A stretch of DNA of 64,000 nt, taken from positions 1 to 64,000 of IMG/VR virus record IMGVR_UViG_3300032050_000024, one strand, 5' to 3'. Of this stretch, positions 33,621 through 39,997 are shown piece by piece. This DNA comes from a virus. The translations under genes and the position numbers were made by a program. The notes under the pieces were generated by a model. The model did not search any database. It was given only the letters and a program-made list of their open reading frames with translations, and was not told where the DNA came from. Within the stretch, counting starts at the first letter, position 1, and each line of letters begins with the position of its first letter.

Positions 33621-34331
33621 CTAGTTTTGTAACATTACCAACCAATATGTTGAATCAAAATCTGAACCTGTAAAATCGATTCGAGCTAATCCATCTGGAG
33701 AAATGTGTAATTGTCCATTATCTCCGCGATTTGCTACTAGTACTTCTTTTAATTTATCTGCAGAGAAACAAACCGGTGACATATCATTACTTGCTGCTTT
33801 TCCTACTTCAAAAGAAATATTATCTGCATTAACGGTTGAATAATTTATAATAAATTTAATTATACCACCTTTTACTTGAACTGCAAAATTCTTAGCATCG
33901 GGTAATGCATTTTTTGCTTTGATGAATCTGCTAACAAATTCTTCATTAACCGGAATTTGTATTTCATAATCAGGTTCTGCATTGATTGAAGGTACTGCTG
34001 GAATAACCGTTGTGTCAGCTAACATGAATGTTGCCTTGGTGCTACCTTCACAAATTTCCATTGCATAATTTTTACCTGCTGCATCTTTTACATTGATTGT
34101 GATATTTTCACCCAATGCACTTAACATTTTATTCAATGCTCCGGTATGATTGATACCTAATTCGCCTTTCATGAACGGAGTTGTTTTCCATTGAATTTTA
34201 CCTACTACGGTTTGATCAACATCAATCAATTCACATCCAACACCTGTTTCATTTTCGTTTAATTTTACTGCTTCGCAATTACCTGCTAAATAATAACGAT
34301 TAATAAATGATTGTAATTTGCTTTTTTCCAT
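33621..34331 (-). CDS. DNA sliding clamp (gp45/PCNA-like)
   Basis: 236 aa, two-domain beta-rich pattern, C-terminal Y.LV; located among the clamp-loader and polymerase genes. Confidence 0.6.
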   Translation of the reverse strand: MEKSKLQSFINRYYLAGNCEAVKLNENETGVGCELIDVDQTVVGKIQWKTTPFMKGELGINHTGALNKMLSALGENITINVKDAAGKNYAMEICEGSTKATFMLADTTVIPAVPSINAEPDYEIQIPVNEEFVSRFIKAKNALPDAKNFAVQVKGGIIKFIINYSTVNADNISFEVGKAASNDMSPVCFSADKLKEVLVANRGDNGQLHISPDGLARIDFTGSDFDSTYWLVMLQN

Positions 34332-34342
34332 GTTTATCCTGA

Positions 34343-35602
34343 TTAAAATTTAAAGAATTTATTAAAGTTTTCTGCATCGGTTGTTGAAATACTACTACCT
34401 CCGAATTTTTTATATGTTTTAATGTATTTTTGATATACAGTTGGTGCTGCATCTGGATCTGCAAACATTTCGTGTAAAGATAAAATAACATCATAAAGAT
34501 CTTTTGGAATTACCGTTTCTAGCAATTCAACGTGACTGTCAACCATTTGATTGATTTCTTGTGCTGCTTGTACATACAAATGCGTATTATGCACAACCAT
34601 TCTAGGCATTGCTTCTTGCGAAAATCTGTCTAAACCTTCTGGAGTCTTACCTCCTAGCAATTCATATGTGAAATCTTTACAAGCGGGGCAACCTAATGCA
34701 CAAGGAACATGTTGAGTTAAATCAATACCAACTTCACCCGTTTTACCTTGTTTGATGTGTGACTTTCTGCGATATTCTGCATTCTTTGGAAAATACAATT
34801 CTGAAAATGATTGTGTCTTGTAATTTGTTGAATGAAGATATGTTCCAAATACCGGATATTGTCCTGGAGATGAAGAATCTGTTGTAATATAAATTCTATT
34901 ATTGGTAAGTTGATTCATCAATTTTTGCAATGTTGCTAATATGAAGAAATCTGATATTTTTGAAATACCTAACAAATGCACATATTCTAAACGCTGATTT
35001 TCAAATTCTCTTTCTTTAAGCATCAAAGAAACCGCAAACATAAAATCAACTAGCTTTTGTGGACCTCCAATTGCCCAACCTTGAAAATCAAAATGCTTAA
35101 ACTTATGATACCACCAAGTATATTCATCAGCATTTGAACCTTGCAACATGTTTAAGAATTTAGTTTTACCACTTTGATGTTTTTCAAACCAAGCAAAGTT
35201 ATCAAAACTAATATCAGCACATAGTGCAAATTGATTTTTATATTTTGTTTTAGGCGGAATATCTAAATTTGCAGCAACATCGCTATTAGCTTCTAACCAA
35301 TGAAAAATCTTTTCACGTAATTCGTTGCTATAAGGTAATGCACCTGTTGCAATCTGATAACCTCCAGAATCTCCAAATACTAACACATCATCTTCTAATC
35401 CCATTTGTTTTCTGAAATCCATTTTTTTGTAATGATGTCCTGCTGTTACTAGAAAATATGGATGTCTCCAATCTTTAGGATAGCGGGAATCAAAGAATTT
35501 TACTGGATCTCCACTTTCGAACTTCATATCCTTTTTAAATGCAGATACCATAGATCCCGCAGATAAAGATGGAAAGTATATGAATCTTTTATTTTCGCTC
35601 AT
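34343..35602 (-). CDS. DpdA/TGT-like 7-deazaguanine transglycosylase
   Basis: TGT-fold motifs DSGGYQ, LDIP, LQG, GWAIGG, HLLG, DSSS and Zn site C..CPAC...HN; folE/queD/queE nearby. Confidence 0.75.
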   Translation of the reverse strand: MSENKRFIYFPSLSAGSMVSAFKKDMKFESGDPVKFFDSRYPKDWRHPYFLVTAGHHYKKMDFRKQMGLEDDVLVFGDSGGYQIATGALPYSNELREKIFHWLEANSDVAANLDIPPKTKYKNQFALCADISFDNFAWFEKHQSGKTKFLNMLQGSNADEYTWWYHKFKHFDFQGWAIGGPQKLVDFMFAVSLMLKEREFENQRLEYVHLLGISKISDFFILATLQKLMNQLTNNRIYITTDSSSPGQYPVFGTYLHSTNYKTQSFSELYFPKNAEYRRKSHIKQGKTGEVGIDLTQHVPCALGCPACKDFTYELLGGKTPEGLDRFSQEAMPRMVVHNTHLYVQAAQEINQMVDSHVELLETVIPKDLYDVILSLHEMFADPDAAPTVYQKYIKTYKKFGGSSISTTDAENFNKFFKF

Positions 35603-37457: not shown

Positions 37458-37462
37458 AACTT

Positions 37463-37491
37463 AATATAATGAATTTATTCTTATTTTCCAA
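37463..37491 (-). promoter_or_regulatory. sigma70-like promoter TTGGAA-N17-TATATT; ATG 5 nt downstream
   Basis: Recurrent motif. Confidence 0.65.
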
Positions 37492-39997
37492 ATGAAAAGA
37501 ATTTTGCAACTGAATTATTTTCTGGAAATGCTCCCCAATTCATTGCTGCATAGAAATCATCAAGTTTATTTTTCAATTCTTTTGCAAATATCTTGTTACG
37601 ATCTATGTATTGTTCTACAAAATCCGTAATAACTTTTGGATCTTGATAACCTCGAAGTGCCATTGTATCAAACCCAAATGGATTATCTGACAAATATGCC
37701 CATTTTACCTTTTCGCCATCTGTGATAGGTTCTATGTCTCGAATTCCGTTTGATACTAATAAATCATTAAAATTAATTGCAGATTTAACGTGTGCTGGAG
37801 TTCCTGATAAATATCCAGTAAATGGTTTTCTTTTCTTAGTATATTTTGATATTTCTTTAACTCCGGAATTCTTCATTACATTGAGCACTGGAGATGATTT
37901 TAATCCAGATTTGAATTTATGAATCATATCTGTTGTAGCTGTTTTATCGCGTTGCTTAAGAATATGCCAAAGTGTTTCTTTCATTATCTTTTTGAAATCT
38001 TCTGGAAAACTAGATCTTACAACATCTAATCCTTTGATATCAAGTTTATCGGTAGGTTTTCCTTCTTTGAATATAACCCATTGTGCATATCTTTTCTTTG
38101 CAATCCATAAACCAGATTTAGCAACATATTCTTGTTTGATTGTCCATCGATGCGTTTCTGTATTGTGAAATACAACTGCATATCGATCATACATTGTGTT
38201 TACTAAACTTTGAACTTCGGATGCAATTGCATTGGTTTGTGCAATCATGAATTCTTCGTCTGTTTCATCATAATCCGGGAAACGTTTTGCAATCAAAGGC
38301 AATGAACTAACAAAGGTTGAATCCGTATCCGTATAAAATGCAAATTCTGCTTTGCCATTAGTTGCATTAATGAAATGATCTTGCCCTATTTCTTTTGCAT
38401 AATGATTGTTAATAACCTTTGCAGAAAATTTAATTACACTTTGACCTGTTGCTGTGATTGCACCTGCATTATCTAAATCATGGAAACGAAATGTTTTAAG
38501 CCCTAATACTCCATAAAATGAATTAAGCAATACTTTTTGTGTATTTTGTAATGCATCATAGAATTTATATTCTTCTGTTCCAACTTCATATTCATCACGT
38601 TTGTCTTTGTATTCAACACGTTCATCAAACCATTTTGCTAATATTGTTGGTAAAAATCCTTTTATGTCTGTTCGATAAACAGCTCCGTTACTTGCAACAG
38701 TATATGCATTGTCTTGCAACCATGTTTTAACATCTTGAACAAAGGTACCATCTATAAACGTAACTTGCTGTGGATCGGATTTCATTAATAAGTCTTGATT
38801 CCAATTTTTTATTACTGCAACTTTAGTTTCTGGAGAAATATTCAAACTCATGATGATGCTTGGATAAAGTGACGTTAAATCTAAGTCATATATCCATTTG
38901 TATAATCCTGGTATTGGATCTTTTACATATGCTCCAGCGAGTGCGTCTGCTTCTGTTTCTTCTTCAATAAATCGGAATTGTTTGTTAGGTGCAACTAATC
39001 CGTTACGCTTTAAATCTACTATTGCAGCACCGTCTAAGTATTTAGATGCATAATATACATCTTCATATGCAACATGACCTTTATGACATATAGTTCTTGC
39101 TAAATTTAGAAGTTGAGTTTTTTCATCTAATTCATAAACCAAATTAACGTCAACCATGTTATATTCAACAAACTTTTTGATGTCTGTTGCAAATAATTGA
39201 TTCAAGTCACCTTCATATTCTATTTTACCTTTACCTAATTCTGTTTTTGCTACAGTATCTAAACGGTAATTTGGTAATTCTGTATATGTAAATTTCTTGT
39301 ATAATGTTAAATAATCTAAACTCGATACACCGAATATTTTGTATCGTTCTCTGTTTTTATTCCATTCAACAATACCGGCAGGTGAAAGTTTCTTGATTGC
39401 TTGTGCACCTAATACTTTTTTGATTCGATTAACAAGATATGGAACGTCATAATTGTCAATGTTCCAACCAGTAATTACTGTGGGTTGAACTTCTGCAAAT
39501 ATGTTTATAAAACGTGTTAACATATCAGCTTCAGAACGAAATATTTCTACTTCATAATCCGTTTCTTTGAATCCTTGTGTTGTAACTCGCTTTTCTTCAT
39601 CTAATACTAATACTCGACGATCTTGTCCGGCTTTATCATAATATGCAATAGATGTAATTCTTAAACGTGCATCTTGCGGAGTTGAATATCCATTTTCATC
39701 ACGTTCTGACTCAATATCAAAAAAGAAATCTTTATGACCTCGAGATGGAGTATCGGATTCATAATACAAATCAATCAGCGTTCTAACTTCTTCATTTAAG
39801 TCAGATTCATATGCCGTTCTATTATCTTTATGGTTACCAGACATTTTATGTAATCTAGTTCCATCTAGTGACATGTAATCGCCGTTGTCTGCAGGTAAAT
39901 ATGCATATGGTTGAAAAGGAAATCTTTGATGTCCTAATTCATCATCCCATACGTGCATTATGTTATTTTTCTTGTCGTAGCCTATTGCTTGATACAT
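37481..39997 (-). CDS. Family B DNA polymerase (gp43-like)
   Basis: ExoI FDIE, ExoII GWN..YD, ExoIII YN..D; DLTSLYPS, K..LNS.YG, YTDTDS, KKRY. Confidence 0.95.
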   Translation of the reverse strand: MYQAIGYDKKNNIMHVWDDELGHQRFPFQPYAYLPADNGDYMSLDGTRLHKMSGNHKDNRTAYESDLNEEVRTLIDLYYESDTPSRGHKDFFFDIESERDENGYSTPQDARLRITSIAYYDKAGQDRRVLVLDEEKRVTTQGFKETDYEVEIFRSEADMLTRFINIFAEVQPTVITGWNIDNYDVPYLVNRIKKVLGAQAIKKLSPAGIVEWNKNRERYKIFGVSSLDYLTLYKKFTYTELPNYRLDTVAKTELGKGKIEYEGDLNQLFATDIKKFVEYNMVDVNLVYELDEKTQLLNLARTICHKGHVAYEDVYYASKYLDGAAIVDLKRNGLVAPNKQFRFIEEETEADALAGAYVKDPIPGLYKWIYDLDLTSLYPSIIMSLNISPETKVAVIKNWNQDLLMKSDPQQVTFIDGTFVQDVKTWLQDNAYTVASNGAVYRTDIKGFLPTILAKWFDERVEYKDKRDEYEVGTEEYKFYDALQNTQKVLLNSFYGVLGLKTFRFHDLDNAGAITATGQSVIKFSAKVINNHYAKEIGQDHFINATNGKAEFAFYTDTDSTFVSSLPLIAKRFPDYDETDEEFMIAQTNAIASEVQSLVNTMYDRYAVVFHNTETHRWTIKQEYVAKSGLWIAKKRYAQWVIFKEGKPTDKLDIKGLDVVRSSFPEDFKKIMKETLWHILKQRDKTATTDMIHKFKSGLKSSPVLNVMKNSGVKEISKYTKKRKPFTGYLSGTPAHVKSAINFNDLLVSNGIRDIEPITDGEKVKWAYLSDNPFGFDTMALRGYQDPKVITDFVEQYIDRNKIFAKELKNKLDDFYAAMNWGAFPENNSVAKFFSFGK

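Follow-up and report, generated by a model that had tools for sequence, protein, structure and literature searches.

Why should a putative DNA-modifying enzyme share a short C-terminal peptide with the DNA polymerase of the phage that encodes it? The question is raised by IMG/VR virus record IMGVR_UViG_3300032050_000024, a viral record of 130,639 bp with a completeness estimate of 78%, the first 64 kb of which form the window. In this window, the family B DNA polymerase (PolB) ends in NNSVAKFFSFGK and a TGT/DpdA-type transglycosylase ends in AENFNKFFKF. The enzyme tail, F413-N-K-F416-F417-K-F419, is preceded by the low-complexity stretch GGSSISTTDAEN, and the two tails have an h-x-x-F-F core in common (h, hydrophobic; x, any residue), present as V-A-K-F-F-S-F in PolB and F-N-K-F-F in the enzyme. 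The gene for a putative sliding clamp starts 11 nt downstream of the enzyme gene on the same strand. A sequence-only reading of the window had pointed to the shared KFFxF end, had likened the tails to the PCNA-interacting peptide (PIP) boxes of clamp partners, and had placed the clamp gene directly after that of the DpdA-like protein; each of these statements holds, with both tails matching h-x-x-F-F. The best explanation, to which we assign a probability of roughly 0.7 on the basis of sequence comparison and structure modeling, is that a polymerase-type clamp-docking tail is present on a DNA transglycosylase, which would thereby ride the replication clamp.

The shared ending is rare in this genome. 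Among the 529 six-frame open reading frames (ORFs) of ≥40 aa in the whole record, KFF.F was found in the last 12 residues of only two, PolB and the enzyme. Relative to the 145 non-overlapping genes, these two KFF.F ends compare with a mean of 0.0115 genes in composition-matched draws, and 0/2000 draws gave two or more. The presence of FF alone near the C terminus was not unusual, with five genes observed and 3.1 expected among the 145. FF alone is common enough that the weight rests on the shared KFFxF sequence and on its conservation among orthologs. FF is also located near the end of two seemingly unrelated genes, at 51258-51647 and at positions 127582-127821 of the record.

Conservation of the enzyme tail was evident among close homologs (120 listed, with 71-95% identity, from 587 with E ≤0.001), where the tail site was FF in 103/120 and YF or HF in 17/120. 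Among 1.84 billion cluster representatives (50% identity), 777 relatives were found, of which 150 were listed and 119 of these were full length (≥370 aa). FF was found in the last 12 residues of 52/119 full-length representatives versus 132/3628 (3.6%) of the internal 12-residue windows, and [FLMIY]F was found in 93/119 versus 708/3628 (19.5%). Finally, IMG/VR was scanned, yielding 573 confirmed relatives, of which the best 80 loci were kept and the complete proteins counted. FF was present in the last 12 residues of all 50 PolB orthologs and of 65/74 enzyme orthologs, and [FY]F was present in the last 35 residues of 73/74 enzymes. By comparison, FF ends occurred in 1/494 proteins from 11 neighboring families and in 5/1029 plus-strand ORFs of ≥80 aa from the same loci. 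Of the exceptions, four (L060, L062, L063, and L065) were inspected, and they carry EFFDF, EYFDF, or EFFNF further inward, before a Lys-rich extension. The tails follow the patterns N-x-x-[VLM]-x-K-F-F-x-F in PolB and F-N-x-F-F-x-F in the enzyme. The TTT/TTC counts of their phenylalanine codons are 105/41 for the enzyme (50 distinct tails) and 86/39 for PolB (42 distinct tails); because the codons vary while FF stays, selection acts on the peptide. An AT-rich nucleotide signal at the gene end was considered as the cause of the tail and ruled out by the codon variation and by the neighboring families. The tail is real, specific, and under selection, and the conservation across orthologs by which the sequence-only reading was to be checked extends down to 37% identity, with an aromatic tail found family-wide.

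The protein encoded next to the enzyme could be identified as a clamp through a fold search only, since its sequence profile gave 0 matches at E ≤10 to PDB sequences. AlphaFold2, supplied with a 34-row alignment of orthologs from the related loci, predicted a structure with a predicted local distance difference test score (pLDDT) of 93.7 and a predicted template modeling score of 0.90 (the pLDDT from the single sequence was only 36.5). A Foldseek search of the PDB returned no fewer than 500 matches with E ≤0.001, and among the matches listed all were PCNA, gp45, or 9-1-1 chains, including PCNA (5a6d_A; E = 4.9e-12), T4 gp45 (3u61_F, with template modeling scores of 0.75/0.80; 6drt_A; 1czd_A), and RB69 gp45 (1b77_A). 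Clamp loader genes and the gene for a polymerase of the clamp-dependent type are found alongside: those of the gp44-like and gp62-like loader subunits lie 0.4-2.3 kb downstream of the clamp gene and that of PolB 3.1 kb upstream. By its predicted fold, the protein is a sliding clamp, as the sequence-only reading had supposed.

The complex of a clamp trimer with enzyme residues 380 to 419 was predicted in three runs alongside three controls, with custom alignments for both partners. The interaction prediction score from aligned errors (ipSAE) was 0.67, 0.66, and 0.61 (median, 0.66), compared to 0.00 for the best control; the mark applied is reached by 116/157 solved complexes and 2/215 mismatched pairs, a calibration that is only roughly valid here. 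At least 41% of the contacts were common to the runs, and the clamp chains had a pLDDT of 92. Enzyme residues 406-409, 412-413, and 415-419 touch the clamp in the model, and F413, F416, F417, and F419 contact clamp residues 39-43, 112-120, 213-215, and 230-235, with F416, F417, and F413 being the closest. Clamp residues 105-123 lack secondary structure in the model, which fits an interdomain connector loop, and residues 230-235 are on the last strand and C terminus; we take the contacted ranges to be the counterpart of the PIP-box pocket of PCNA. The modeled enzyme tail thus occupies the peptide pocket, and it probably docks in this connector-loop/C-terminal pocket of the clamp. Since RB69 and T4 gp45-peptide and PCNA-PIP complexes have been solved, the model shows likeness, not binding.

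What the tail is attached to was assessed from the enzyme family. Pfam TGT (PF01702) was matched by 16 of the 46 aligned family members (best E = 1.9e-11), and precomputed PF01702 annotations are found on many close homologs. The family profile matched the archaeal TGT 1iq8 (ArcTGT; E = 0.0072) over the zinc motif, where P-C-x3-C-x2-C...H-N is aligned. D78-S-G-G-x-Q83 (D78, S79, G80, G81, and Q83) and D242 are invariant in the 46 sequences; the D-S-G-G-x-Q motif and the second aspartate presumably have the catalytic roles described for TGTs. Because the TGT matches are weak, we infer catalysis on DNA from family and context, and the enzyme is, on sequence comparison, a predicted member of the TGT/DpdA superfamily.

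Among viral DpdA proteins, the family profile matched PA5oct QCG76197 (E = 5.9e-47) and the Phosso enzyme (E = 2e-31) and reached the DpdA2 of nt-1 only at E = 0.07. No match was found in 9g (DpdA1), phiST (short DpdA3), or CP220 with this profile; comparison with phiST gp042 by hhalign gave a probability of 1.2%, and CP220 was also without matches to the phiST protein and to Pfam TGT. No Campylobacter phage was matched by phiST gp042 in a tblastn search, and a Pfam TGT search of nt-1 gave no match, its DpdA2 being taken from the annotation table. In table DS1 of PMC10516641, a 75%-identical homolog (CAB4155268.1) is listed under DpdA1 and PA5oct QCG76197.1 under DpdA3. Because the profile matches PA5oct but not phiST or CP220, we refer to the enzyme as a long, PA5oct-type DpdA and not as a DpdA3. 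Placement in DpdA3 was rejected, as kinship with the founding members (phiST CGPG_00065 and CP220 YP_009169190) was not detectable.

In more distant phages, the two tails have changed jointly. One locus (L075) retains FF in both, with IESFFEF at the end of PolB and IETFFDFN at the end of the enzyme. A switch from FF to LF is found in both tails of Pseudomonas phage PA5oct (PolB, HFDSLFGW; enzyme, SFNSLFDV, located 31 residues before its end), Sinorhizobium phage Phosso (TFNDLFTF and IVEGLF), and Vibrio phage 2.275.O (NNTDLFDW and NNNDLFGW). A clamp-like gene is located between polB and the enzyme gene in PA5oct (E = 1.8e-6) and 2.275.O (E = 5.6e-6), both full-length matches to the clamp profile in a 14-sequence search, and in these two phages the enzyme gene is within two small genes of the clamp gene. 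In Phosso, the clamp gene follows polB, and genes for a glycosyltransferase (GT)-like protein and DpdL are close by. A family B polymerase was looked for and not found in Peetri and NCTB, which encode related enzymes, and the tails of these enzymes are without the motif. On these comparisons, the tail characterizes the long, PA5oct-type branch rather than DpdA enzymes at large.

The gene neighborhood points to the base that the enzyme would insert. FolE, QueD, QueE, and a homolog of DpdL are all encoded within 8 kb; QueC was looked for in the 130.6-kb record (estimated completeness, 78%) and not found. The DpdL homolog is 39.8% identical to phiST gp040 (DpdL; E = 4e-15) and carries LSDRHRHMF, fitting the DpdL signature LxxxHRHxF, which replaces CxxxHGH (PMC10516641). 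DpdL is the proposed decarboxylase of 7-carboxy-7-deazaguanine (CDG), and if it acts as such, the predicted base would be 7-deazaguanine by the reasoning of the same paper, in which reconstitution of DpdA3 with DpdL in Escherichia coli failed (PMC10516641). Between the DpdL homolog and the enzyme, a GT-like protein is encoded that shares 40% identity (E = 7e-74) with PA5oct QCG76198, encoded next to PA5oct DpdA3; the enzymes themselves are much less alike, at ~26% identity. A sequence similar to the GT-like protein is also found beside DpdL in Phosso, and an ESM Atlas look-up returned viral GT1-like clusters only. The GT-like protein may be an unrecognized core part of the long-form DpdA system. 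The gene immediately upstream of polB, for a hypoxanthine/guanine phosphoribosyltransferase (HGPRT)-like enzyme, recurs in 19 related loci; its product could salvage guanine freed by base exchange or make deazapurine nucleotides.

Under the favored reading, the 419-aa enzyme would be a DNA guanine transglycosylase supplied by the phage FolE-QueD-QueE(-DpdL) pathway. Its F-N-K-F-F-K-F end, following a low-complexity, low-confidence segment, would be a PIP-like peptide matching in kind the V-A-K-F-F-S-F-G-K of PolB, and both tails would dock in the hydrophobic pocket between the connector loop and C-terminal strand of the trimeric gp45/PCNA-type clamp. The clamp loader would place clamps on DNA during replication, and the tethered enzyme would therefore stay on newly made duplex DNA, sliding along it and exchanging guanines for the 7-deazaguanine base. 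That the enzyme rides the clamp had been proposed from the sequence alone, and the proposal has gained from the motif conservation, the clamp fold, the joint change of the tails, and the complex model, all of them computational. That it would act on nascent DNA at the fork, as the sequence-only reading went on to propose, is an inference.

The arrangement of the locus suggests how the enzyme came to be next to the clamp. By PolB, the nearest isolate is Microcystis phage Mel-JY01 (44% identity), followed by T4-like cyanophages (~31-33%), and the record is therefore placed in an uncultured, distant T4-like lineage. In Mel-JY01 (L085; PP395634.1, 73198-76507), PolB ends in LSKFFNFK and its gene is directly followed by that of the clamp (profile E = 2.5e-52), with no DpdA module in between. 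Thus, the genes for a conserved 149-aa protein (o149), the DpdL homolog, the GT-like protein, and the enzyme were apparently inserted between polB and the clamp gene in the lineage of the window. Across the 80 loci, the order PolB-o149-DpdL-GT-enzyme-clamp-(dUTPase)-clamp loader is kept down to 37% identity of the enzyme and 29% identity of the clamp.

Polymerase-type tails on other clamp partners are known from T4. T4 gp43 binds gp45 via its tail, 889-EKASLDFLFG-898, which the F-S-F-G-K end of the window PolB resembles (PMC6212786). T4 DNA ligase does so via a gp43-tail-like loop, EPEGLDFLFD, with a dissociation constant of ~10.7 µM, and was recognized as a clamp client by its likeness to the polymerase tail (PMC6212786), the same sign that makes the enzyme here a candidate client. 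The T4 and RB69 ligands (1b77, the RB69 peptide-clamp structure; 6drt, the T4 ligase loop) share with the predicted arrangement a short hydrophobic or aromatic peptide, a flexible segment, the pairing of the polymerase with a second DNA enzyme, and docking on a trimeric clamp, in a pocket of its outer face. They differ in that the client here would be a base-exchanging transglycosylase, that the motif is h-x-x-F-F-x-F rather than the L-D-F-L-F of T4, and that the window clamp shares with the solved clamps its fold and no detectable sequence likeness.

T4 alpha-glucosyltransferase is, as the enzyme of the window is predicted to be, a DNA-modifying phage enzyme that binds the sliding clamp of its phage. 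Sommer et al. reportedly found in 2004 that it binds gp45. It also pulls down with gp45, and replication-coupled modification was proposed, although expression level weighs more than the gp45 contact in its share of glucosylation (PMC13216743). A polymerase-like tail is not mentioned for it in the accessible part of that paper (PMC13216743). Alpha-glucosyltransferase glucosylates hydroxymethylcytosine already in DNA, whereas the window enzyme would replace the base. In eukaryotes, the PIP-box clients DNMT1 and UNG2 act on DNA behind the fork via PCNA; the likeness of a DNA-modifying or base-removing enzyme tethered to a clamp for new DNA is one of mechanism only, the enzymes and hosts being unrelated.

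Within the DpdA field, the locus resembles the viral systems DpdA1 to DpdA4 in having a TGT-family enzyme beside FolE, QueD, QueE, and a DpdL homolog, with no QueC found, and table DS1 records such FolE/QueD/QueE/DpdL-type sets in numerous uncultured phages (PMC10516641). DpdA is present in every virus known to carry 7-deazaguanine bases, which make up from <0.1% to 100% of guanines, and insertion after replication has been proposed (PMC10516641). The accessible part of that work mentions no clamp, tail motif, or GT-like partner (PMC10516641), and no published link between a DpdA and a clamp was found in a literature search largely limited to non-subscription journals. Viral clamp clients, T4 alpha-glucosyltransferase among them, are the precedent; what appears to be new is a putative DpdA-type client with a polymerase-type tail.

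Several observations weigh against this interpretation. The window enzyme itself has 0 Pfam matches at E ≤0.01 and matches TIGR00432 at E = 0.018, and the family profile meets solved TGTs only at E values of 0.007 to 0.04. The complex model departs from the calibration of the tool through its custom alignments and trimer, the fold of the partner is uncertain (partner pLDDT of at least 44, with 45 to 53 across the runs), and the score may owe its height to solved PCNA-PIP and gp45-peptide structures retained by the predictor. Conservation at the modeled clamp interface does not exceed that of the remaining residues (6/24 versus 48/236 overall). The jumbo phages PA5oct, Phosso, and 2.275.O may belong to one deep lineage, so that the independent switches of the tail would be few. 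In the T4-like Vibrio phage nt-1, DpdA2 ends in AEYPDFKS, unlike the LESFFG of its PolB. In the T4-like Campylobacter phage CP220, the short DpdA3 (CPT_0056, located by counting 13 genes back from QueD with the RefSeq numbers of table DS1, and aligning with phiST gp042 [DpdA3] at E = 6e-7) ends in IMDFRTINGL and PolB in TETLEEW. Since CP220 DNA is reported to be fully modified (PMC10516641), complete replacement can be reached without a clamp tail. The use of the clamp tail as a general explanation of complete replacement by DpdA3 was dropped, given that the CP220 tail is unlike that of its PolB. Lastly, the HGPRT-like gene, a ribonucleotide reductase gene at 44809-46665, and dUTPase leave a nucleotide-level route open.

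That the tails serve no shared partner at all, the aromatic end acting in each protein alone (in folding, oligomerization, or turnover) or being an AT-rich by-product, is very improbable and already disfavored. At ~33% G+C, an FF near the C terminus is expected in about 3/145 genes, and the two seemingly unrelated genes noted above do carry one, but no shuffle of 2,000 gave two KFFxF ends, FF ends are found in a single one of the 494 neighboring-family proteins from the same AT-rich loci, FF stays while TTT and TTC vary, and the switch from FF to LF was made by both tails. A different objection concerns which partner is shared. The comparative data reveal a common peptide in the polymerase and the enzyme and do not name what it binds; the modeled pocket is not specially conserved, and the phage single-stranded DNA-binding protein (SSB) itself ends in the aromatic-acidic SAFDDLFNA. 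The tail might, accordingly, bind another part of the replisome (the gp32-type SSB, helicase, or clamp loader), which would likewise bring the enzyme to DNA under replication. We regard this as unlikely, since T4 gp43 binds gp45 through its homologous tail (PMC6212786), the peptide conforms to the h-x-x-aromatic-aromatic pattern of clamp ligands, the model scored 0.66 compared to 0.00 for controls in the connector-loop/C-terminal pocket, and the enzyme gene is kept beside the clamp gene, or at most two small genes away in PA5oct and 2.275.O.

The remaining alternative separates the modification from the enzyme: the base would be made into a nucleotide before replication by the HGPRT-like enzyme, ribonucleotide reductase, and PolB in turn, and the TGT-like protein, irrespective of the partner of its tail, would modify tRNA or contribute little. 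The position of the HGPRT-like gene directly upstream of polB, the presence of ribonucleotide reductase, thioredoxin-like, and dUTPase genes, and the report of the 7-amido-7-deazaguanine (ADG) nucleoside in CP220-infected cells (PMC10516641) all accord with such a route. The sequence-only reading had favored insertion into DNA, in agreement with the presence of DpdA in every virus with these bases and the proposal of post-replication insertion (PMC10516641); these nucleotide-metabolism genes prevent that part from standing in full. A clamp-ligand tail, however, suits an enzyme on duplex DNA and not one on tRNA, and the HGPRT-like enzyme would be equally well explained as salvaging guanine released by the exchange. 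A nucleotide-level origin of the base is therefore improbable in our estimation, and docking of the transglycosylase on the replication clamp remains the reading that we prefer.

If the transglycosylase docks as predicted, a clamp tail on a large DpdA branch gives a testable account of how such enzymes find and cover a whole replicating genome. What reconstitution attempts have been missing may be the matching clamp with its loader, and possibly the GT-like partner as well. A base-exchange enzyme would also join the viral clamp clients, namely polymerase, ligase, late transcription factors, and T4 alpha-glucosyltransferase. A sequence rule for further clients follows, that of a tail the same as that of the phage's own polymerase, and here it also selects a resolvase. 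This endonuclease I-type resolvase is encoded outside the window (record positions 100990-101490, minus strand; L003:2990-3490), matches Pfam Phage_endo_I at E = 2.3e-33, and ends in REVKKFF. Its h-K-x-F-F end is kept in most of the 80 related loci (~72 by count, the rest being incomplete read-outs), and by this likeness the resolvase probably uses the same clamp pocket as a third client. In a more ambitious scheme, which we consider tentative and rather doubtful, the clamp would be a three-place tool-belt occupied by polymerase and transglycosylase and occasionally also by the resolvase, with processive guanine exchange in duplex DNA just behind the fork. The freed guanine would pass through the HGPRT-like enzyme to GMP and GTP and then through FolE, QueD, QueE, and DpdL to 7-deazaguanine, the GT-like protein being a core part. 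Replication, base exchange, and precursor supply would then form one closed, clamp-organized circuit.

The coordinates of the genes and tails are collected in Table 1. The G+C content of the genome is ~33%, and almost every gene is on the minus strand. The order of transcription begins with FolE, QueD, a 133-aa ORF, QueE, thioredoxin-like, GroES-like, and small genes, and the HGPRT-like gene; it continues with PolB, the 149-aa ORF, the DpdL homolog, the GT-B-like protein, the TGT/DpdA-type enzyme, the clamp, dUTPase, and the gp44-like and gp62-like loader subunits.

Table 1. Features of the clamp-transglycosylase locus in window coordinates, listed in order of transcription (numbers after profile names are E values unless otherwise stated)
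Feature	Coordinates	Strand	Matches and remarks
FolE (GTP cyclohydrolase I)	42914..43579	-	Pfam GTP_cyclohydroI 1.2e-46; PHROG 2197 1.9e-62
QueD (6-pyruvoyl-tetrahydropterin synthase family)	42448..42912	-	Pfam PTPS 1.9e-15; PHROG 2389 3.9e-37
QueE-like radical SAM enzyme (7-carboxy-7-deazaguanine synthase)	41318..42106	-	PHROG 2076 9.6e-51
HGPRT-like (hypoxanthine/guanine phosphoribosyltransferase)	40001..40504	-	NCBIfam TIGR01203 8.9e-38, 129.7 bits, below the cut-off of 150; Pfam Pribosyltran 3.4e-20
PolB, family B, T4 gp43 type, 838 aa	37481..39997	-	Pfam DNA_pol_B 7.1e-37; exonuclease domain 1.4e-23; PHROG 262 3.1e-183 (protein 8-835, profile 15-852 of 856 positions)
PolB C-terminal tail, putative clamp-binding peptide	37484..37519	-	N-x-x-V-x-K-F-F-x-F-G
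149-aa conserved protein (o149), PolB/DpdL interval	37008..37457	-	same position in 46 related loci; no match in Pfam or PHROG
DpdL homolog, QueD-like T-fold	36668..37039	-	PHROG 17812 2.9e-24
GT-B-type glycosyltransferase-like protein	35602..36666	-	Pfam Glycos_transf_1 3.7e-6; present in 63 related loci
TGT/DpdA-type transglycosylase, 419 aa, long form, PA5oct type	34343..35602	-	family-level TGT matches
Enzyme C-terminal tail, putative clamp-binding peptide	34346..34375	-	F-N-K-F-F-K-F
Sliding clamp, predicted gp45/PCNA fold, 236 aa	33621..34331	-	AlphaFold2 and Foldseek; PHROG 223 'processivity factor' 4.6e-6
dUTPase	33185..33613	-	Pfam dUTPase 6.9e-21; PHROG 135 2e-49
Clamp loader large subunit, gp44-like AAA+	32253..33179	-	PHROG 168 6.5e-84; Pfam AAA 1.8e-19; DNA_pol3_delta2 3.4e-13
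Clamp loader small subunit, gp62-like	31368..31820	-	Pfam Phage_clamp_A 3.5e-8; PHROG 225 8.1e-19

Other proteins of the window have conspicuous ends. The gp32-type SSB (50370-51146, minus strand; Pfam gp32, E = 1.3e-13) ends in DIASAFDDLFNA, which includes SAFDDLFNA, and its F-D-D-L-F peptide resembles the polymerase ends of PA5oct and Phosso. The 133-aa ORF in the QueE/QueD interval (42084-42485, minus strand) ends in EDDYDLPF, and an AAA+ ATPase (2210-3379, minus strand) ends in EEDGNGIPF. Both ends resemble the tip of bacterial SSB, and it is possible that they are hooks for host SSB-binding proteins. Besides the family B replicase, a 449-aa ORF (52882-54231, minus strand) gives a partial match to family A DNA polymerases (Pfam DNA_pol_A, E = 1.1e-13). 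Finally, the adjacent ORFs at 43642-44082 and 44098-44589 (minus strand) have identical last 16 residues, TKYDASGIDTPGDPNM, and look like a tandem duplication; the first of them has weak PHROG matches to ParB-like nuclease.

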